Below are positions 20,587 through 29,991 of a stretch of DNA of 64,000 bases, piece after piece. The notes under the pieces were generated by a model. It saw only the letters and a program-made list of their open reading frames with translations. It was not told the DNA's origin and did no database searches. Both the position numbers and the translations under genes were made by a program. How positions within the stretch are numbered: position 1 is the stretch's first letter; every line of letters begins with the position of its first letter. The DNA is from Candidatus Kerfeldbacteria bacterium (lineage in GTDB: Bacteria > Patescibacteriota > Patescibacteriia > SBBC01 > CAIJZX01), in NCBI GenBank assembly GCA_903825245.1, contig CAIJZX010000012.1, positions 76,059-140,058 of the forward strand, in the 5' to 3' direction.

Positions 20587-20661
20587 GGGTTCCTAGCTCA
20601 ATGGTAGAGCAACGGCCTTTTAAGCCGTGGGTTCTGGGTTCGAGTCCCAGGGGACCCACCA
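20587..20661 (+). tRNA. tRNA-Lys (anticodon UUU), CCA encoded
   Basis: The 7-bp acceptor stem is gggttcc/gggaccc, the D-arm gctc-aatggta-gagc, the anticodon stem acggc/gccgt with loop cTTTTaa, and the T-arm ctggg-ttcgagt-cccag. Confidence 0.85.
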
Positions 20662-22418
20662 GCCAACAATTTGCGCCCCGAACTCATCCCGGCGATATGC
20701 CCAAGGATGTCTTGGGGCAACTTCAATTTAATACGTATTTCATAGGGTAAAAGTTGTTTTTCCTTACGTCGTCCGGCAATGCTGTCTTCCGCAGTGGAAG
20801 GACGGGAATATATAATGATCTCCTCGATCAGGGCATGAAGAAGCTGGTCGAGCTCCCGGCGGTCGCCAAAAATATCATTAAGTGCCTCCGAGTACTTTTT
20901 ATTGAACACATTAAGGCTAGAAATGTAGCTATCTGGCATTGCGTTTTTTGAAATGAGTAGGTCTAGCTTTTCCAATTCAGCTGTTAGTAGCACAATCTGC
21001 TTCTCCAACTTCTCCATTTCCTCTTTAAGCTTCGGCTGTTTGATATAACCAAGCTTATGCTGTTCCAAGATATTGTTTTTCCTCGCTGGCATTGCATCAA
21101 GCAACTGTCGCAACTGCTCTCTTTTCTTGGCGAAGTGTTTCTTTTCCGATTGTGTAGATTTTAGTTTTTGTTGGTACTTGAATACAGCCTCTGGGTTTTG
21201 TAAAAACTCTTTTGTCTTAGTAACTACATATCGTTCTATTTCTTCGGCTGGCAATGGAATTGTAAAACAATTTATTTCGTATTTGCTCGTATTTTTTCGA
21301 GCACACTTGTAGTAATAGGCAAAATTATCAGGCGCTGTTGTAAGCTTCTTTCGTTCCCCAATCCACCGATACATTGTAGGATCAGCGTCCGGCTTGAAAC
21401 ATGCATCACATTTAAGTAATCCTCTTAATAAATATATGTGTCCTTCTCGGGGCTCATCAATGATGTTTTTTGTCTGGGCAAGTATGTTTTGGGCTTTTTC
21501 AAAAGTCCCTACATCAATGATCTGTGGCAATGCATAGGGTGAAATACTCCACTTAGAAGGTTCTACCCGCTTACCGTCTCTTGTTTTACCAAAGTAGTAT
21601 TTACCAATGTATATGGGGTCTTTTAATATCTCTCTTACAATTTCCATTCGCCAAAAGTTCGGCGAACTCTTCTTTCTTATTGCCCCTTTATATTCTTTAT
21701 ACAAGACTGATGATGTTTCAGGTGAAGGCCGCTCCTCCTCCGTGAGTATCTTCGCGATCCGCTGTGCGGAAAGTTTTTGTGAAACGCACATGTCGAAAAT
21801 TGATCTGATAACTTCGGCTTCGGCTTCGAAGATGACCAACCTCTTTTCACTGTCTTTAATGAAGCCGTATTTCATGCCCGATCCCATGACAACTCCGTTC
21901 TTAATCGCTTGTTCCCGTCCGGCTTGTGTTCTTTGCTTGATCGTCTCAACTTCTAATTCAGCGATGACACCAATGATGTTCAAAATCGCCTTTCCAAAAG
22001 GTGTAGACGTGTCTATGCTCTCTGTTGCCGACAAGAATTGAACGTCGTATTCACCGAAAAAGTCGATAACTTCTAAGAGGATTTTTAATCGACGTGCGAA
22101 ACGATCAATTTTGTATACCGCAACTGCGTCGAAAGGCCTGTCTTCGGGTGTAGAGTTTGTGAGATCCTCTTGAAGTTTCGCAAAAGCAGGTCTCTCTGGA
22201 AGATCAACGGTACCGCTAATCCCTTCATCAAAATAAATATACTGATCCCCAGCGAGAACCATTGCATCAAGCCCATTATCGAGTTTTCCTCGGGCTTTTA
22301 TCAAGCCTAGTAACGCTTCTTGTTGGAGCTTTTTTCCGTACCTCTCAACCTGCTCATCAGTCGAAACCCGCAGGTAGAGAGCGACGCGGAGAGACGATTG
22401 TTGTTGGTTTCCGATCAT
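20598..22418 (-). CDS. large serine recombinase (integrase)
   Basis: The N-terminal resolvase catalytic domain (LRVALYLRVSTDEQ) is followed by a recombinase domain, a CxxC zinc ribbon and a coiled coil. The last roughly 64 nt of the ORF overlap the tRNA on the opposite strand. Confidence 0.85.
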   Translation of the reverse strand: MIGNQQQSSLRVALYLRVSTDEQVERYGKKLQQEALLGLIKARGKLDNGLDAMVLAGDQYIYFDEGISGTVDLPERPAFAKLQEDLTNSTPEDRPFDAVAVYKIDRFARRLKILLEVIDFFGEYDVQFLSATESIDTSTPFGKAILNIIGVIAELEVETIKQRTQAGREQAIKNGVVMGSGMKYGFIKDSEKRLVIFEAEAEVIRSIFDMCVSQKLSAQRIAKILTEEERPSPETSSVLYKEYKGAIRKKSSPNFWRMEIVREILKDPIYIGKYYFGKTRDGKRVEPSKWSISPYALPQIIDVGTFEKAQNILAQTKNIIDEPREGHIYLLRGLLKCDACFKPDADPTMYRWIGERKKLTTAPDNFAYYYKCARKNTSKYEINCFTIPLPAEEIERYVVTKTKEFLQNPEAVFKYQQKLKSTQSEKKHFAKKREQLRQLLDAMPARKNNILEQHKLGYIKQPKLKEEMEKLEKQIVLLTAELEKLDLLISKNAMPDSYISSLNVFNKKYSEALNDIFGDRRELDQLLHALIEEIIIYSRPSTAEDSIAGRRKEKQLLPYEIRIKLKLPQDILGHIAGMSSGRKLLAGGSPGTRTQNPRLKRPLLYH

Positions 22419-22743
22419 AGGACAAGAGAGGTAACTAGCCCAGAACTATGCAAACATGATTATCATACTCGTTTTATTGCTATAAAGCCATAATTGCTAA
22501 CCCGAGGTAATTAAACTATAATTCAATCTGTTTCCGAGGCCTAGATGCTCATTTCTACAATTTACTTAGCCTAAACTTCGGCCTATGGCCGGGGCACGGC
22601 GATCAAACCAAGAGAGGCGAACAGCTCCTAGTCAGAGCACCTCTCTTGGTCGTGCGTGGAAACGCGCACGGGTGGCCGTAAGGTCATCGCTGGCTAGGGG
22701 CTTTGTGTTTGTACAAACCCGCCGCCAGATATTTACAAAATAT

Positions 22744-22971
22744 ATGGCACAGGCAAAAACTGTTGGAATTATGAGCTTGGTTATTCTCGGCACATTGTTG
22801 CTTGGGACTACTTTTTGGTGGTTTCAGCTACGCCCATTTTCTGACCATAGGGCATGCGCGAAATATACTACTACCCAAGCAGAAAAGATGGATTTTGACC
22901 TCCATACGCCCATTTACTTTCCCGGTTATGGTGTGGTTTATGACATGTGCTTACATGGTAAGGGCTATTAA
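22744..22971 (+). CDS. small membrane-anchored protein (island cargo)
   Basis: The internal Met MAQAKTVGIMSLVILGTLLL gives a TM anchor. The 12-bp palindrome GTTTGTACAAAC lies just upstream. Confidence 0.35.
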   Translation: MAQAKTVGIMSLVILGTLLLGTTFWWFQLRPFSDHRACAKYTTTQAEKMDFDLHTPIYFPGYGVVYDMCLHGKGY

Positions 22972-22974
22972 CGT

Positions 22975-23835
22975 ATGCAAATACTTCTCTGGTTGGCTTA
23001 CGCCGTTGTCGGTATATTCGTGATAGTGTTTCTCGCTGGTGGAGTTACTGCCGCTGTAAAGAATTCAGGAAAAAGAAGGCGTCTCCATTCTATAGGGGCA
23101 GTAGCACAAATTCCTGCTGATTTAAGGATAATCATGCGTGAGATTTATACTGCACATAAAAAACAAGACGTTGCACTCGTAAACTCGGTTACCGTTTCCA
23201 CTGGCATCGTGCAACTAAATAAAATTCTAGAATTGATGAAGCCAGAAAACCGACTCAAATACCTATCAGCAGGTATGCAGGGCGATGTGACTGCTTTTAC
23301 GGCAATGGAGAACGAGCTAGTATCAAGAAACTACAAGGTCAATGCGGCAAAGATTGTTACTGGTATTATCCTGAATGATCTCGATGATCCGCTTTTGAAA
23401 ATGAAAGGGCAGGAGACAGCCCCACCTTCCCCAAGTGCTAAGAGTAAAATCCTTCTCTTTGAAGATGACAAGATATTACGAACTTTGTATGAAGCAAAAT
23501 ATCATCAACAAGGGTTTGACGTTGCTGGGTATGACAATCCAACCAGCGACCCGGTGAGCGTTGTTTTGAGAGAAAAGCCTGATGTGATTTCAATGGATAT
23601 TGTCATGCCAATTATGGACGGGTTTACTGCAACCGAGTTGCTGAAAACCGATGCGCGAACAAAAGGTATTCCCATTGTTATTTTTACTAACCATGCACAG
23701 CATAAGGACATTGATCGTGGCAAGGCATTGGGTGCGGCGGATTACCTGATCAAAGCACATTTTACGCCTGATGAGGTGGTGGATCGTTTTCGGCGGGTTC
23801 TCAATTTAAATGACGTAGCAAATCGTAAACTTTGA
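22975..23835 (+). CDS. membrane-anchored protein with a C-terminal response-regulator receiver (REC) domain
   Basis: An N-terminal TM helix is present. The C-terminus (KILLFEDD......ISMDIVMP..DG......K) matches the CheY-like receiver pattern. No output domain was recognised. Confidence 0.55.
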   Translation: MQILLWLAYAVVGIFVIVFLAGGVTAAVKNSGKRRRLHSIGAVAQIPADLRIIMREIYTAHKKQDVALVNSVTVSTGIVQLNKILELMKPENRLKYLSAGMQGDVTAFTAMENELVSRNYKVNAAKIVTGIILNDLDDPLLKMKGQETAPPSPSAKSKILLFEDDKILRTLYEAKYHQQGFDVAGYDNPTSDPVSVVLREKPDVISMDIVMPIMDGFTATELLKTDARTKGIPIVIFTNHAQHKDIDRGKALGAADYLIKAHFTPDEVVDRFRRVLNLNDVANRKL

Positions 23836-23856
23836 AGCCGCTAATCGATTATACCT

Positions 23857-24855
23857 ATGAGCCACTTCACTCCTCAAACTAGAGCACTCTCGATCCTCAC
23901 TTTAATCACGGGGTTATTACTACTTGGCGCATCTTGCTCAAATAAAAGAGCGATAGATACGAACACAACTAACTCAAAGGTTACAGAAACCAACAATGCA
24001 GTATTGGCCAATATAAACACCACATATTCTAACCAGAATACTTCGGTTGTTGTAAATAACTCGGTAAATCCATCATCCAACTCGAATCAATCTATTACAA
24101 ACGGAAAAGTTGTTGTACAACCAAAAAACACGAATACGGAGAAAAAAGTATTAAATACCAACACGGCTCCAAAAGTGTTGAGCACCAACACTAACGTGGA
24201 TGTCCCACCAGCTACAACACCTGCGCCCACAGCGCGGCTAACAGCATCAACAGATTGCCCAGTTTTGCAACCGGCGGTGCTGACTTGGAATACAACCGGC
24301 GCTCAAACCGTCACATTAGAATCCTCAACGGGTGGGGATCGCCAGACGATAGACATACAAAATGCGGCTACGGGAAACGTAACTATAAATTCTCAAAAAA
24401 CCACGAGCTATTATCTAACTGCAACAAATCAAAGTGGACAGAAAGCAACGGCGCAGGTTCGGCTAGATCGCCCAAACGTAGACCCTAACTATCCGATTAT
24501 CACCGGCTACGCCGATACTTTGGGCGTGGTTTCTCATTCATCAAGCTATAACGGGTATGGCTGTGGTGGTAAGGGTCAGCCGATTGCACACATCGGCGAC
24601 ACCATAACGTTAACTGTTGACGCGTATGATCCGAATGGCGATCCGTTGGTATACAGATTCAGCTCAGTGTTTCCATCAGCCATGGGTGTAACCAGTGGTT
24701 GGACAAGCAGTAGCACCTATACGTGGACATTCACTTCTGCTGATGTGGGGTCGATGAGATGCGTCTATATTTCCGTAAAAGATAATGACGGGTATGACCG
24801 AATTGCTGATTATGACGATACAAGCCCTGCTTGCTATGATATTGCACACCCATAG
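23857..24855 (+). CDS. secreted Asn/Thr/Ser-rich protein with a C-terminal beta-rich domain
   Basis: A signal peptide is followed by an N/T/S low-complexity region. The C-terminal 150 aa are of normal complexity. Confidence 0.45.
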   Translation: MSHFTPQTRALSILTLITGLLLLGASCSNKRAIDTNTTNSKVTETNNAVLANINTTYSNQNTSVVVNNSVNPSSNSNQSITNGKVVVQPKNTNTEKKVLNTNTAPKVLSTNTNVDVPPATTPAPTARLTASTDCPVLQPAVLTWNTTGAQTVTLESSTGGDRQTIDIQNAATGNVTINSQKTTSYYLTATNQSGQKATAQVRLDRPNVDPNYPIITGYADTLGVVSHSSSYNGYGCGGKGQPIAHIGDTITLTVDAYDPNGDPLVYRFSSVFPSAMGVTSGWTSSSTYTWTFTSADVGSMRCVYISVKDNDGYDRIADYDDTSPACYDIAHP

Positions 24856-24903
24856 TTACGTTAACAGCGCAGTAAGTAATCAACAATGATTAGCTAAAAC
24901 ATT

Positions 24904-25161
24904 ATGCCGAGATTAAATTCAAGTGACAACGAGGACGAGATGAGTTCAAGGTTACGGCAAGGGGTTCTTGCTACTGTATTGACTTTGTCGCTTATCGGAT
25001 TAGGCGCGGCTGTTTTCGACGTTCACCATGTCTGGTGGGAAAATGATACGGTACAGGGAATACAGATGCTCTCATTGATTGGTGTGTTCTACTGCCTATT
25101 GGCAACATTGCTCAAAATTCTTAATAAAAAGAAACTATCCGAGGATAACTCCGAGGATTAG
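24904..25161 (+). CDS. small membrane protein
   Basis: The 85 aa protein has two hydrophobic helices. Confidence 0.3.
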   Translation: MPRLNSSDNEDEMSSRLRQGVLATVLTLSLIGLGAAVFDVHHVWWENDTVQGIQMLSLIGVFYCLLATLLKILNKKKLSEDNSED

Positions 25162-25435
25162 CCCTTCCTGGTAATTTACTACTTAATTAACGAATCTTTC
25201 TTTGGCCGTATTTGTCAATACGTCGATAGATTTTTTAGTAACTTCCGGCGCACTTGTGCTGGCGTTTTTTTCTTTGTTGAAATGAGGGTGATCAATCGCT
25301 TTTTCATATAATTGAGTATACCATCCGCCCTTATCTTTCCAAGGGTACTCTTTGAATCAAGATAGCAAAAATTAGGAGGATGTGGTTTTATGGACTATAA
25401 TTGAGTAGTTAAACCGTGCAATCTCGTTATTGGCA

Positions 25436-28400
25436 ATGATCCTAAGTGCAGCATTAGACCGAATAAACGACCCCGAAGTGTCCTTATTTGTTTTGTTATT
25501 GCTTATTATGGTAGGAATCATCTACCTTTCCCGATGGATAGTTCAAAAGATCAAGGAGAGTGGAAATACAATTTCGGCAAAGACGAACAAAGAATACAAG
25601 AATCTATGTAAAAAAAGAGAGTTTTTTTGGCACAGGCTATTTAGGGATTTTTACGCCCCCTCAGTACGCTCTTCAATTGCAATGGGTGTAATCGCATTTG
25701 GAATATATGCGTTGTCACACTTTATCCAAACAAAGAGCCAAACCCTTTCTTTTGTTAATGGCAGTCACTACCAAAACTTGATCGCAATTTACTCTGGTAT
25801 CGCCGGCATTATCTTTGCACTTATAATCTTTGTCGCTGAAAGCTTGCGCGATGAGCAATCACGCGATCAAGCACGCGTAATACTTCGAACGACTTACCTA
25901 TACCCACTGGTGGTTCTTGCTGTTCTAAACTATAGCGTTTACGCATGGGGAGACGTCAATTCTCTTGGCGTAGTCCCCGTTTTATTTCTTGGAGCATTTT
26001 CTATTTTTTCACTTTTCCGTCTATTTAGAATACTCTTAGATAGGAGTGAAAACTTTAACCAAAAAATTAAGTTGCTAACCGATCGTTTGAGGCTAAGTAT
26101 TGATGGCGCTATTCGTCAGCGACTGGGTAATGTGATTTTATTTAAATGGCTTACTGATTATAAAATACCGATTTCCTTCTACCCGTTTACTACGGAGGGC
26201 TCAGCATACTACAATTTTACTTCAAAAAAATCGGGAATTGTTGCAGACATCGATCTGGGAAAACTCGAAGACTTTGCCAAAATGGTTGAAGAGGCGGCAA
26301 ACAAGAATGATTTTAGTTTTTTTGGCAGAGAAGGAAAGGCGCTATCGATCAATACATCGACGGATACGACGGAACCAAGTGAGGGCAGCACTAGAACGTA
26401 TTCAAAGAATGATCACGTATATTTTGGCAAGCTATACAGAGACGAGGTCAAGCTTGACGACGTGCTTCTTTCTGTTAAAAAAGACATCATCGGCGATCAA
26501 AAGAAGGTGCTAGATAAGCTCAATGCCACTTTTAAAAAAATCTACGTAGTAAAAAAAGAAGAGCACGGTATTTCCGAACAAAACCGACTAGAGCTTTCCG
26601 CACAGAAAGACCAATTTATAGCCGCTGTAAAAGCGGGAAGTATGGGAAAGATAAGAGAGGGCTCGGCAATATATTTAAGCCTTGCAGAGACTTTTCTAAA
26701 AGCCCTCAATGAATGTGGCGGGGGTTATAGTTTTGATCAAGCTCGCCGCGAAATGGGTTCGATAATTAGCCGTTGGAATGAAGCGGATTGGCTTCAAGAG
26801 GATATTAGCGAAATACATAGAGCAGCACTAGACACGCATGATCAAAACGTGATTGATGAAATTGCCTTTTTGCCTATGAAGATCGTGAGTCTAGCCATAG
26901 AATCACGAGACCATTTTATTTTTCAGACCTTCATTCAGTTTCAATTGAGGTTGTATCTCGGATCACTGCGCGAGAATGATACCGATTTAAAGAGGCATTT
27001 GCTTGATCGTTCATGGCGATATTTAAAAGAATCTGCTGATTTTTGGGTCGAGCACGAAATAACAAAGGAAGATAATGAGAAAGATATTCCTAGGTTGAAG
27101 GATTTTGCTATATACTACTTTTCTGTATTTCAGACCATACTGCGGGAAGCCGTAATAAAAAAGGACAAAGATGGGTTTGAGCTCTTCGCAGTTGCCCTTT
27201 CAGGCTTGTTTGATTCTTTCAAATATACCCTTGAAGATGAGCGCACTCGGCAACCAGTGGCTGATGCTATTAAGGAAATTTGGTTAAATAAAGACCAGAT
27301 GATATTTGGCCTAACGAGCTGGATTTTTTCAGAATATAAAAAGAATCCAAACAATGAGACAACAAAAAGTTCATACGGAAAAATTCAGTCCCTAATAAAA
27401 AACAATATAGTTGATTTAACGTCTACCTTTCTATCAGTTCATGACTTTAAAGTAGGTGATTTCTGGGGATGGGATCGTTGGGATATGATTGCCGATGGTC
27501 AGGTGCATACTATCGATGTTAGCGGGAAAATAGAAAGATATTTTATTGTTCGCGGGTTGAAGATACTAGCCACAATGACTGACGATAACATTCGAGCCAT
27601 AGAACTACCGACGAACCGAAATATGGCATTTCAGGCTGATAGCGGTGGCGGCTTGCTTATGGTATTGGAGCAAATTCAAAACAATCAAAGTGATTGGGAT
27701 GCGCACCTTACCCCGGTTGAAATTGGGAAAATTGATCTTTTTAAGGCACTTCTCCAAAAGGCGAAGGCGAAACAAGAATCAGACGAGCAAGAACAGGTAA
27801 AGGCTAGTCCAATCAGCGAAAAGAAGAGGAAAGAATTCATTCAGGAGTTTCTTGAAGGCTATCGTCAGTCGAGTTATTTCCGTCATATCGTGAAGCACTA
27901 TGGCAATTTGGTCGAAAAACCAAATGATCAAATTTCAGAAAACAGACTGGGCGTGAATATGGTGGAAGATAAGCAAGTCTTCTTTGAGCACTGGCACGTG
28001 CACTACTCCAAATGGGGTAACCAGTTTGGGCACGACATGGCCAGAGCCGAAAATGACAGCATACTTTCTAAGGTCGTTAGTTTTAGTGCAACTCTAAACG
28101 AGACGGACTTAGATCAAGTTATTGAAAGATTTACAGAAAAGAACGACATCATCATTATCGCTTTAAACCAAGCGATATTTGGATTCTTCCATCAATCAAA
28201 CAAATTTGAATATAAACGTTTTGATGATCCTGAAAAAATACCATCATACAGTCAGGAGGGGTGGTGGAAGATTGATCAAAACCTCCGTATCCCAGTTTTT
28301 GAAATCCATGACCGTAATCAGAACAACGCCATCCTAGTTTTAAACAAGAAAAAAATGGGTCGATTAGAACAATACTCGCCATTGCGTGATGCAGAACTGC

Positions 28401-28636
28401 CTAGTGACCAAGTTGAACATTTCTATTTTTCCATTAAAGCTTTCTCAGAGAATCCTGATTTGATGACAAAGATCATATCCAATCCGCCTGCTTGGTTAAC
28501 GGAGAAGGGAAATGAAGAACAACAAAAAGATCACCTCAAAGGAAAGGTGTGGATGAAAATATATGAGTCCTATGCCTATAACAAGGGTGATGATTTTGAG
28601 GGGTATATTTTCCCAGTTGCTAACCCGCTAGTCTAG
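25436..28636 (+). CDS. large (about 1066 aa) polytopic membrane protein with a big soluble domain, unknown function
   Basis: Five to six N-terminal TM helices (first about 210 aa) are followed by about 850 aa of soluble sequence. No Walker or other recognisable motif was seen. The ATG at 25436 is preferred over the TTG at 25430. Confidence 0.55.
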   Translation: MILSAALDRINDPEVSLFVLLLLIMVGIIYLSRWIVQKIKESGNTISAKTNKEYKNLCKKREFFWHRLFRDFYAPSVRSSIAMGVIAFGIYALSHFIQTKSQTLSFVNGSHYQNLIAIYSGIAGIIFALIIFVAESLRDEQSRDQARVILRTTYLYPLVVLAVLNYSVYAWGDVNSLGVVPVLFLGAFSIFSLFRLFRILLDRSENFNQKIKLLTDRLRLSIDGAIRQRLGNVILFKWLTDYKIPISFYPFTTEGSAYYNFTSKKSGIVADIDLGKLEDFAKMVEEAANKNDFSFFGREGKALSINTSTDTTEPSEGSTRTYSKNDHVYFGKLYRDEVKLDDVLLSVKKDIIGDQKKVLDKLNATFKKIYVVKKEEHGISEQNRLELSAQKDQFIAAVKAGSMGKIREGSAIYLSLAETFLKALNECGGGYSFDQARREMGSIISRWNEADWLQEDISEIHRAALDTHDQNVIDEIAFLPMKIVSLAIESRDHFIFQTFIQFQLRLYLGSLRENDTDLKRHLLDRSWRYLKESADFWVEHEITKEDNEKDIPRLKDFAIYYFSVFQTILREAVIKKDKDGFELFAVALSGLFDSFKYTLEDERTRQPVADAIKEIWLNKDQMIFGLTSWIFSEYKKNPNNETTKSSYGKIQSLIKNNIVDLTSTFLSVHDFKVGDFWGWDRWDMIADGQVHTIDVSGKIERYFIVRGLKILATMTDDNIRAIELPTNRNMAFQADSGGGLLMVLEQIQNNQSDWDAHLTPVEIGKIDLFKALLQKAKAKQESDEQEQVKASPISEKKRKEFIQEFLEGYRQSSYFRHIVKHYGNLVEKPNDQISENRLGVNMVEDKQVFFEHWHVHYSKWGNQFGHDMARAENDSILSKVVSFSATLNETDLDQVIERFTEKNDIIIIALNQAIFGFFHQSNKFEYKRFDDPEKIPSYSQEGWWKIDQNLRIPVFEIHDRNQNNAILVLNKKKMGRLEQYSPLRDAELPSDQVEHFYFSIKAFSENPDLMTKIISNPPAWLTEKGNEEQQKDHLKGKVWMKIYESYAYNKGDDFEGYIFPVANPLV

Positions 28637-28707
28637 TTAGCTTTATCCGGCCAACATCAAAGTAAAATCGGACTTTTCATTTTGTTTTTTGGTGCTATGG
28701 TTAATTT

Positions 28708-29127
28708 ATGGCTACCAGTAAACAAATCAAAACGGCAAGAATTATGTCCGAAAATGTCCGAAAATCGGTGTCCGCCGCCATGCGCGACGCTGGTTATTCA
28801 AATCGCTCGGCCGAGAAACCACAGCGGCTCACTCGGAGCAAGGGTTGGCAGGACTTGATGGATGAACACTTGCCTGATAAAACACTGCTAGGCGTCCATA
28901 AAGGCCTGTTACGAGACCCTGATTGGCGGGCGCGGGATTCTGGTCTAGATATGGCTTATAAACTCAAAGGCTCCTACAAAGCCACCAAGGTAAGTGTAGA
29001 GGATTCACTTGAACACTTGTCAGACGATGAGCTTGATGTGTTACTAGCCGAGCAGAAGCCAGCTATTGAACGGTATCAGCAATACAAAAGAACAAGACGT
29101 CATCCCGCTGCGCAACCGATTAAGTAA
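28708..29127 (+). CDS. terminase-small-subunit-like (Terminase_2-like) DNA-binding protein, tentative
   Basis: The N-terminus (MATSKQIKTA....AAMRDAGYSNRSAEK...LTRSK) resembles the TerS N-terminal HTH pattern KQ......A...AGYS..TA. The resemblance is at motif level only. Confidence 0.4.
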   Translation: MATSKQIKTARIMSENVRKSVSAAMRDAGYSNRSAEKPQRLTRSKGWQDLMDEHLPDKTLLGVHKGLLRDPDWRARDSGLDMAYKLKGSYKATKVSVEDSLEHLSDDELDVLLAEQKPAIERYQQYKRTRRHPAAQPIK

Positions 29128-29135
29128 ACGATTGA

Positions 29136-29318
29136 ATGACCATGTTGACCGACAAACAGATCGAGGAGTTTCAGGCGCTTTATAAAAAGAATTTTGGGAC
29201 TGATATTAGCCGAGAGGAGGTGCTAGAGTCGGCTATTCGGCTCATTAACCTGATCAAAGTGGTATACAAACCGATGACAAAAGAAGAGTACAAGAGGTAC
29301 TCCGACGATCTGAGATAA
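29136..29318 (+). CDS. small hypothetical protein
   Basis: It is 60 aa long. Confidence 0.3.
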   Translation: MTMLTDKQIEEFQALYKKNFGTDISREEVLESAIRLINLIKVVYKPMTKEEYKRYSDDLR

Positions 29319-29328
29319 ACTAGATGCC

Positions 29329-29589
29329 CTACTTTTTTCTTTTTCTTACGGCACTAAATAACTTGTGAAGTAGCTGATCGTCGTCACTTGCAGTTGAAGA
29401 TATAGCCACATTGATCTTAGTGCCTGCGTGTAGGCCGGTTCTTACGACTGGGGCGTTGTCCGTAGATAAATGTTGTTTTACCCGACCAGTATGATCCCAA
29501 GCGGTTGCAATAAGGGAATCACCAATGCCAAGTTTATCGGTTTTAGCTCTTGGTTTGATTAGCCTTTTGATTGATTGAGGTAACTTCAT
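29329..29589 (-). CDS. hypothetical basic protein
   Basis: It is 86 aa long. Confidence 0.3.
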   Translation of the reverse strand: MKLPQSIKRLIKPRAKTDKLGIGDSLIATAWDHTGRVKQHLSTDNAPVVRTGLHAGTKINVAISSTASDDDQLLHKLFSAVRKRKK

Positions 29590-29721
29590 GTATATACCTA
29601 TTAGCTTGTCGTAGGGGGCTTTTACGGGCTCCTAGACGCTTAATGTGGCGGTCTAAGCCCACGCAGAGTATAACAAAGTTTAGCCCTTTTGGTATAATTG
29701 AGTTCGGGGTAGAATGTGTTG

Positions 29722-29991
29722 TCCCACCAAAAACTAGCTATTACCAGACATCTGTATCGAAGATACGGAGTGTTTGGATATGAAAAATTGGGACGAGAAG
29801 GGCCGAGCACTTGCGCCGGTGGCGCGAGAGCGCAGGCCCCGGCTCGACGAAGTGCCGTTGCCGGGAACCCCGCAGGGTCGGCAACAAGCTTCGGCGAGGA
29901 GTCCCAGGGGACCCACCAAAAACTAGCAATTACCAGACATCTGTATCGAAGATACGGAGTGTTTGGATATGAAAATTGGGACGAGAAGGGC
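29722..29991 (+). repeat. two approximately 80-bp direct repeats (29722-29802 and 29912-29991) flanking a GC-rich approximately 110 bp insert that ends in the tRNA 3' fragment
   Basis: CCCACCAAAAACTAGC[T/A]ATTACCAGACATCTGTATCGAAGATACGGAGTGTTTGGATATGAAAA(A)TTGGGACGAGAAGGGC occurs twice. The first copy begins with a truncated gtcccacca. Confidence 0.55.

Follow-up and report, generated by a model that had tools for sequence, protein, structure and literature searches.

A tRNA-Lys island of Candidatus Kerfeldbacteria encodes a membrane-anchored, anti-phage candidate protein with a predicted HK97 capsid fold

Introduction

What kind of element is a small genomic island whose cargo resembles almost nothing in the databases? 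The question is raised by a 9,061-bp island (positions 20662-29722) in a 64,000-nucleotide stretch of a Candidatus Kerfeldbacteria genome (GenBank assembly GCA_903825245.1, contig CAIJZX010000012.1, positions 76,059 to 140,058). This whole stretch is called the window below, and all coordinates given without a locus prefix refer to it. Among the cargo proteins, only a receiver (REC) domain matched a family in Pfam, PADLOC, PHROGs or NCBIfam (the four family databases hereafter). A preliminary description, made from the sequence alone, had listed the open reading frames (ORFs) of the island, all of which are present with the transmembrane (TM) and signal features assigned to them; it had also remarked on the absence of replication, conjugation, toxin-antitoxin and restriction-modification (RM) genes from the cargo, and the four family databases likewise revealed none. 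Its view of the cargo as one module has to be given up, since the unit-1 proteins have no homologues in the loci that encode relatives of the largest cargo protein or of the small-terminase-like protein, a terminator-like hairpin splits the gene array, and the receiver protein has its nearest relatives on chromosomes. The cargo divides into three separate units: four passenger genes behind a LOOT RNA (unit 1), the gene for a giant membrane protein (unit 2), and an orphan small-terminase-like gene (unit 3). We read the locus as a three-unit island that carries a membrane-anchored, capsid-fold candidate for phage exclusion or abortive infection, a reading that we judge about equally prone to be right or wrong; the anatomy of the island, the fold and the genomic associations come from computation, and from them we infer the defence function and its mechanism.

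The interest of the locus centers on the giant protein. We know of no described cellular role for the HK97 fold outside virions, gene transfer agents and encapsulin compartments, and a large membrane-anchored family with this predicted fold, encoded beside RM systems, would put a hallmark fold of viruses to a new use. Should the family be defensive, it would embody a new principle of phage sensing or interference.

A predicted capsid fold at the end of a membrane protein

Hydropathy places 4-5 TM helices in the N-terminal part of the giant protein (residues 16-34, 81-99, 117-135, about 150-172 and 178-196), and the R/K-rich loops that follow TM1, TM3 and TM5 indicate, by the positive-inside rule, that the C-terminus is cytoplasmic. 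A conserved TM core (about residues 76-203) is followed by an alpha/beta domain (246-378), a long alpha-solenoid (379-825) and a C-terminal domain (826-1062); these last ~240 residues are predicted to adopt the HK97 capsid/encapsulin fold. The full-length AlphaFold (AF2) model was built from 14 sequences (predicted local distance difference test [pLDDT] 77, predicted template-modelling score [pTM] 0.60) and has low-confidence loops at 900-960, and the model of the C-terminal domain reaches pLDDT 86 and pTM 0.81. Two independent models (14 and 104 sequences) agree, with two programs, on an HK97-like domain in which the predicted order of secondary-structure elements matches that of the E-loop, spine helix, A-domain and P-domain. 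In structural comparison, the domain scored 11.8 against the capsid protein of mycobacteriophage Douge, 11.7 against T4 gp24, 10.8 against HK97 gp5 and 10.4 against lambda gpE; scores against other capsid proteins were 10.3 (capsid-forming phage-inducible chromosomal island, cf-PICI), 8.8 (gene transfer agent), and 10.0 and 8.9 (herpesvirus). The preliminary description was right that the soluble part of the protein lacks a P-loop (there is no Walker A motif), but its claim that this part has no known motif at all does not survive the prediction of the C-terminal fold.

Could the likeness to capsid proteins be an artefact of structure prediction, the C-terminal domain being an unrelated alpha/beta fold? 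Such an error would be in keeping with the lack of sequence similarity to capsid or encapsulin families and with a first full-length model that drew on 14 sequences only and left loops 900-960 at low confidence. Against it stand the identical outcome of two models of independent depth in two programs, the confidence scores of the domain model, and an element order that fits HK97; an artefact is in our estimate quite improbable.

Conservation is distributed unevenly along the protein. Its most conserved stretch lies in the TM core (YQNLIAI..G......FAL.IF.AESLRD) and includes invariant polar residues such as Q115, N116, E137, R140 and D141, and in close homologue pairs this core is the slowest-evolving region, with the HK97-like domain least or near-least conserved in seven of the eight. 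A conserved TM core joined to a faster-evolving HK97-like domain could fit a split between effector and sensor, for which we regard the pattern as weak evidence.

A large family found beside restriction-modification genes

A word-indexed search returned 14 full-length relatives of the giant protein at 29-36% identity, and a profile search of 1.84 billion representatives returned 1,574 at E ≤ 1e-3, of which 704 lie at E ≤ 1e-30. The protein has no sequence match in the four family databases, nor in the PDB by phmmer or by profiles of 14 or 104 sequences; given its 1,574 representatives, the family is therefore large as well as unannotated. One member bears the NCBI name 'MFS transporter', which is probably wrong. 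Members occur at 25 GTDB loci in Patescibacteria groups, Gammaproteobacteria, Scalindua, Bdellovibrionales, Fusobacteriales, Atribacter, Caldisericaceae and one Methanobacteriaceae archaeon, and this patchy spread over phyla and domains points to horizontal transfer of the gene. The archaeal member, a full-length one encoded in a metagenome-assembled genome (L021, CAWJRO010000015.1), aligns at 32% identity over query residues 72-1050, showing that the family crosses the domain boundary. A distant member of 1021 residues, WP_281010100.1, is encoded between PIN-domain genes on plasmid pPg_05 (NZ_CP112879.1; L164 5847-8912) of the cultured cyanobacterium Pseudanabaena galeata CCNP1313; it has a TM N-terminus, and its C-terminal 310 residues are homologous to the HK97-like domain (hhalign probability 99.6%). 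With members in Gammaproteobacteria and on the plasmid of a cultured cyanobacterium, the family is open to direct testing.

We compared the genomic neighbourhoods of the giant gene's relatives at 24 distinct loci. At the first seven, RM genes adjoin the giant gene in six (TaqI with a methylase; a Type III-like methylase with ResIII; an MmeI/Type ISP enzyme; HNH with Mrr; a methylase with DpnII; SNF2 with an Eco57I-type enzyme), and the seventh, L011, is a prophage in which the giant gene follows the integrase and which also carries a LOOT RNA and a large terminase (TerL) gene. Among 105 neighbours at 16 further loci, no family comes close to the DNA methylases in frequency, with 14 genes (N6_N4_Mtase 10, EcoRI_methylase 2, N6_Mtase 2); ResIII accounts for four, DEAD and HNH also occur, and the PADLOC models MTase_II and MTase_III dominate. 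In raw counts, at least 15 of the 24 loci have an RM gene no more than 7 kb from the giant gene, 10 of them no more than 1 kb away, and 9-10 of the 24 have a large serine recombinase within 7 kb. In L009, L010, L012, L023 and L026, the RM gene is co-oriented and ends 3-74 nt upstream of the giant gene, which is often the last gene after RM genes of differing types (DpnII, Eco57I-like, Type III-like and N6_N4 methylases); such orientation and spacing suggest co-transcription with RM operons, beyond mere proximity within islands. The suggestion of the preliminary description that the cargo is defence-like finds its counterpart in these associations: the giant gene recurs beside defence genes in unrelated genomes, as genes of defence islands do.

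Few other elements recur among the loci, namely the LOOT RNA, a 60-aa ORF and, in L039, the small-terminase-like gene. Homologues of the 60-aa ORF lie directly 3' of the giant gene in L001 (13423-13629) and L007 (10242-10430) and in the element backbone in L009 (4491-4691); in the window, the small-terminase-like gene separates the two. As to the idea of an obligate partner, the 60-aa ORF adjoins the giant gene in only two other distinct loci.

These contexts also bear on a cellular function for the giant protein. The island could be a decayed prophage remnant with unrelated passengers, in which the giant protein serves the cell, for example as a capsomer-like ring for a membrane channel or as an encapsulin-like tether. 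HK97-fold proteins form pentamers and hexamers; in addition, L011 places the giant gene beside an integrase, a LOOT RNA and TerL, and a TM core that is the best conserved part of the protein and holds invariant polar residues resembles a channel or transporter-like module. Yet a patchy taxonomy and islands beside RM systems would be atypical of a housekeeping function, and the comparison with encapsulins gives little comfort. Encapsulin Families 1-4 are defined by Pfam Linocin_M18, Phage_capsid or DUF1884 together with a conserved operon cargo enzyme (PMC8346489). None of 14 members of the giant family gave a Pfam match, to Linocin_M18 and Phage_capsid or to any other model, and the neighbours are RM genes and recombinases; unlike in encapsulin operons (PMC8346489), no cargo or enzyme partner is conserved next door. 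With Family 1 encapsulins (linocin M18, maritimacin of T. maritima, PfV of P. furiosus) and phage capsids the giant protein would share the predicted fold only, to which it adds ~800 N-terminal residues and 4-5 TM helices. These additions should be incompatible with a closed shell, which we consider unlikely for this protein, and the prophage-remnant explanation as a whole appears to us unlikely too.

A candidate anti-phage protein and how it might act

That the giant protein acts against phages is, in our judgement, an evenly balanced proposition. It follows from the combination of architecture (a membrane anchor that bears a cytoplasmic domain predicted to fold like a capsid protein) with horizontal mobility and RM, recombinase or prophage contexts. 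If the protein is defensive, its cytoplasmic HK97-like domain may engage the major capsid protein or the capsomers of an infecting phage through capsid-like contacts. Acting as a sensor or poison subunit, the domain could (i) withdraw capsid protein from assembly or (ii) transmit a signal through the alpha-solenoid; the TM core (YQNLIA...FVAESLRD), as effector or anchor, would then disrupt the membrane or sequester capsid protein. The orphan small-terminase-like gene and the 60-aa ORF would point to a tailed phage that infects the same group of hosts, from which the island derives or which it parasitises. This capsid-engagement mechanism, with either removal of capsid protein from assembly or membrane damage by the TM core as its outcome, is built on a predicted structure; it is the likeliest mechanism that we can offer, and still rather unlikely to be right. 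We would rate as somewhat unlikely the broader proposal that the family (at least 1,500 clusters, from bacteria and at least one archaeon) is a widespread prokaryotic immune family in which a domesticated, membrane-tethered HK97 fold targets the capsids of tailed phages.

CapRel, Lit/Gol and PifA are defence systems triggered by the phage major capsid protein, and Fv1 is a eukaryotic Gag-derived restriction factor, a domesticated capsid-type protein that targets capsids. All four would be analogous in function to the proposed capsid targeting, and none is homologous to the giant protein. If capsid targeting holds, the giant protein would be a prokaryotic counterpart of the eukaryotic capsid-derived, capsid-targeting restriction factors. 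A different parallel is offered by SNIPE, a single-gene, membrane-anchored anti-phage nuclease that cuts DNA during injection (bioRxiv 10.1101/2025.11.03.685801): the giant protein resembles it in having a membrane anchor, in probably working alone and in being encoded within defence or mobile islands, but its family shows neither a catalytic motif, of a nuclease or otherwise, nor a match in PADLOC. More generally, no cargo protein of the island matched PADLOC-DB 2.0 at E ≤ 0.1, in line with the earlier statement that no described defence system fits, and the literature that we searched, with incomplete coverage, describes neither a membrane-anchored HK97-fold protein nor an HK97-based prokaryotic defence protein.

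Several observations weigh against an anti-phage role. The HK97 fold is a prediction, with a sequence identity of 6-13% between the C-terminal domain and capsid proteins, and neither Pfam nor PDB profiles provide a sequence-level link from the giant protein to capsid or encapsulin families. No catalytic motif, nuclease motifs included, was found in the protein, and the HK97-like domain may do no more than build ring oligomers, for example pentamers or hexamers around which a membrane complex without any viral target is organised. The association with RM genes and mobile elements may reflect a shared cargo space and not defence, and the copy in the window has no RM neighbour. IMG/VR and the GenBank phage collection contain no member of the family, leaving L011 as the one basis for its carriage by prophages.

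An island in the 3' end of tRNA-Lys

A large serine recombinase put the island into the 3' end of tRNA-Lys (Table 1). Its status as an island is supported by the tRNA, the recombinase, the repeats, the inverted arms and a drop in G+C content from 0.491 in either flank to 0.423. The heptamer CCCACCA, with which the tRNA gene ends (20655-20661), occurs again at the right end of the island (29723-29729). Immediately inward of each junction lies one arm of an imperfect inverted repeat, an attP-like layout of the kind expected for the half-sites of a serine integrase; the island attP and the empty attB junction are predicted to read …GAATGTGTTGTCCCACCAGCCAACAATTT… and …GGGGACCCACCAAAAACTAGC…. The recombinase contains Resolvase, Recombinase and zinc-ribbon domains, the last of which scores below the curated cutoff (20.7 vs 25.3 bits).

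Table 1. Features of the island and its borders (window coordinates)
Feature	Position	Strand	Remarks
tRNA-Lys(UUU)	20587..20661	+	Integration target; ARAGORN; Rfam tRNA 72.9 bits
Large serine recombinase, 606-aa ORF	20598..22418	-	Pfam Resolvase 1.9e-30, Recombinase 1.9e-19, Zn_ribbon_recom 5e-4
Left island end, imperfect inverted-repeat arm	20664..20686	.	Pairs with 29699-29721 over 23 nt, 78% complementary (repeat search)
Promoter-like site TTGCTA-17-TATAAT	22494..22522	+	Upstream of LOOT RNA; consensus scan, 10/12 matches
LOOT RNA (Rfam RF03000)	22568..22688	+	cmscan 79.1 bits vs gathering 46.4; full length, model 1-121
75-aa ORF, unit 1	22744..22971	+	One TM segment; no family match; no homologue in fetched loci
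Orphan receiver protein, unit 1	22975..23835	+	Pfam Response_reg 1.1e-16, residues 159-271
Predicted lipoprotein or secreted protein, 332 aa, unit 1	23857..24855	+	Signal peptide with LLLGASC; no significant family match
85-aa ORF, last gene of unit 1	24904..25161	+	Two TM segments
Terminator-like hairpin and T-run	25245..25272	+	7-pair stem, 5 G-C pairs, CGTTTTTTTC tail; between unit 1 and giant gene
Giant membrane protein, unit 2	25430..28636	+	1068 aa from TTG 25430; 1066 aa from ATG 25436
Predicted C-terminal HK97-fold (capsid/encapsulin-like) domain of giant protein	27905..28633	+	
Orphan small-terminase-like gene, 139 aa, unit 3	28708..29127	+	Homologues directly upstream of TerL
60-aa ORF	29136..29318	+	Homologues, phmmer E 1e-9 to 4e-10
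86-aa ORF	29329..29589	-	Convergent with cargo; no family match
Right island end, inverted-repeat arm and CCCACCA core (attR)	29699..29729	.	Arm 29699-29721
189-bp tandem duplication of DNA downstream of tRNA-Lys	29723..29991	.	Repeat search; sequence

The recombinase gene abuts tRNA-Lys, and the 3' end of its ORF terminates antisense within the tRNA gene. Because the ORF ends inside its own target, the C-terminal tail of the protein must differ between the integrated and the excised form of the island; the ORF read across the reconstructed attP gave nothing informative. A similar overlap of a recombinase with a tRNA is seen in the Atribacter locus L009 (96-107).

A LOOT leader and four passenger genes

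The preliminary description had called the space between the recombinase and the cargo a divergent regulatory region. The divergent layout is real, and the region holds what that description overlooked, a LOOT RNA that lies divergent from the recombinase, ends 55 nt 5' of the first cargo ORF and is preceded by a promoter-like site; sites of this kind are no more numerous in the region than shuffling would lead one to expect. LOOT also occurs in five other giant-gene loci and in L039 (copies elsewhere: L003 14542-14650, L011 7358-7478, L024 2532-2666, L039 9206-9326, L029 21954-22070, L014 14826-14924). In the five loci where the distance is measurable (L003, L011, L024 and L039 among them), an ORF of the same orientation begins 57-111 nt downstream of it, and six of seven loci have a large serine recombinase within 10 kb, divergent and adjacent in the window and L011. 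The genes downstream vary from locus to locus, and none of 11 phage-like contigs that carry the small-terminase-like gene contains a LOOT RNA. Rfam files LOOT as a small RNA, but its position in the sequence suggests a leader at the 5' end of operons in serine-recombinase elements rather than a free small RNA. The island thus gives an orphan RNA a genomic context, as an apparent operon leader.

The four genes behind LOOT appear to be passengers. By its arrangement, unit 1 would comprise the LOOT leader and these genes, closed by the terminator-like hairpin, with no recurrence among the fetched loci: tblastn of each island protein against the 24 giant-family loci and the small-terminase-like loci gave no homologue of the 75-aa, receiver, N/T/S-rich or 85-aa proteins. 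The hairpin stands directly upstream of the giant gene, which is therefore probably a separate transcription unit. Neither this hairpin nor the 60-aa and 86-aa ORFs near attR figure in the preliminary description. Within unit 1, the 332-aa protein has a linker rich in N/T/S (47% across residues 30-135). The receiver protein aligns full-length with REC-REC tandem proteins; its C-terminal REC is intact, and its N-terminal half is a degenerate REC that lacks the acidic pocket. In the alignment with these relatives the FEDD, SMD, FTN and LIK motifs are kept, and the D/E, D, T and K positions are conserved. Only a translation start at 22975 would give the protein its hydrophobic/TM N-terminus, which the deposited gene call, of 233 aa and beginning at M54, lacks. 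No histidine kinase and no output domain for the receiver is encoded within the island. Its nearest relatives (248-285 aa) are chromosomal, and the one with fetched context (P0200) directly follows a PAS-HisKA-HATPase kinase among housekeeping genes.

These findings bear on the notion that all cargo genes make up one novel multi-gene signalling or defence system. The genes are co-oriented in one island with short gaps, and the REC domain is the only one of their parts with a known function, as might be expected of such a system. But none of the other genes of this putative system co-occurs with the giant gene in the 24 loci, the hairpin divides the array, the relatives of the receiver belong to chromosomes (beside a kinase in the fetched case), and the family of the small-terminase-like protein is a phage packaging gene. 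It had been proposed to look for the giant, receiver and 139-aa proteins together near serine recombinases elsewhere, and the fetched loci of the giant and small-terminase-like families contain no homologue of the receiver protein. A single system is largely refuted by this lack of co-occurrence and must be deemed extremely improbable.

An orphan small terminase and the case for a satellite

On the strength of gene order, the 139-aa protein is a phage small terminase (TerS), as the preliminary description had supposed. Its relatives number 29 in the protein collection and 80 in metagenome contigs, and occur on 42 IMG/VR contigs, many of 37-43 kb. Among loci with at least 1.5 kb of downstream DNA, a TerL-like ORF comes next in 65 of 78, and two inspected exceptions still carry a 474-aa or 520-aa ORF there. 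In two phage-sized contigs the homologue overlaps the start of TerL (Pfam Terminase_6N/3C/6C; phrog_38 E 1e-19), and in 20 viral contigs all named PHROG matches of the next downstream ORF are terminases, nearly all of them large subunits. The family thus resembles phage small terminases in its place directly upstream of TerL in most loci and in an N-terminal AGYS-type segment that is helix-turn-helix (HTH)-like. Direct matches are weak: Pfam Terminase_2 was found in one of 23 members at E 0.11, and a profile of the family reached the solved TerS chains 2cmp_A and 4zc3_A in the PDB at E 0.6. Since these matches to known TerS families are not significant, the assignment rests on the conserved gene order.

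Unlike phage small terminases, the copy in the window has no partner: the ORF list, Pfam and PHROGs show no TerL in the island. Its closest relative, at 69% identity, lies in a second island of ~10 kb (L039 5611-15600) in a Patescibacteria genome, which contains a serine recombinase, HTH_17, a LOOT RNA, a zinc-ribbon membrane protein, the TerS-like gene, proteins of 612 aa and 484 aa, SIR2_2 and SocA_Panacea, and likewise no recognisable TerL. We considered whether the 612-aa and 484-aa proteins, which sum to ~1096 aa, are a split giant protein; an hhalign probability below 1% led us to reject this. The island variants of TerS are short (133-139 aa) and lack the central insert of the two homologues with known phage context. 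Metagenomes yielded no relative with more than 50% identity to the TerS of the island by which a conserved satellite family could be tested.

Is the island, then, a phage satellite? The preliminary description compared it with phage-inducible chromosomal islands (PICIs), and it shares with PICI, cf-PICI and P4-like satellites a small integrative body, a fixed att site, an integrase, a TerS of its own and defence-looking accessory cargo; at 9.06 kb it falls in the ~7-18 kb range of satellites, and its TerS is unaccompanied by TerL, portal or capsid genes. As a satellite, it would use the orphan TerS to redirect the packaging of a helper phage, with the giant protein and LOOT serving capsid hijacking or remodelling and early-operon control. 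Satellites do carry defence genes, the island TerS variants are short and without the central insert, and some weight attaches to the pairing of LOOT with a short TerS, and to the lack of TerL, in two independent small islands, the present one and that of L039. The PICI comparison stands as far as TerS, integrase and size go and fails for the replication module and the protein regulators: the four family databases recognise no replication or primase gene and no repressor or Cro-type HTH protein, and unlike in PICI-type satellites the integrase is a serine and not a tyrosine recombinase, with LOOT in the divergent region and no repressor pair. Moreover, the giant gene is mostly found outside such islands, beside RM genes, a membrane anchor is ill-suited to capsid remodelling, and there is no sign of a helper phage or of packaged island DNA. 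A satellite with a capsid-hijacking giant protein is thus an unlikely account of the whole, and a three-unit island with an anti-phage candidate remains our preference. For the island itself, the best reading is that it is prophage-derived or satellite-like, and its orphan TerS makes it a candidate phage satellite in a Patescibacteria-type host; we know of no phage satellite described for Patescibacteria.

A duplicated attachment region

The right end of the island adjoins the tandem duplication listed in Table 1, the copies of which (29723-29791 and 29912-29980) are 96% identical. For the GC-rich 104-nt filler at attR (29795-29898), Rfam offers no credible match. Ahead of the second copy, 20 nt of the tRNA 3' end appear once more (29899-29918) and constitute a second, unoccupied attB-like site; judging from this arrangement, the duplication could be the scar of an earlier element.

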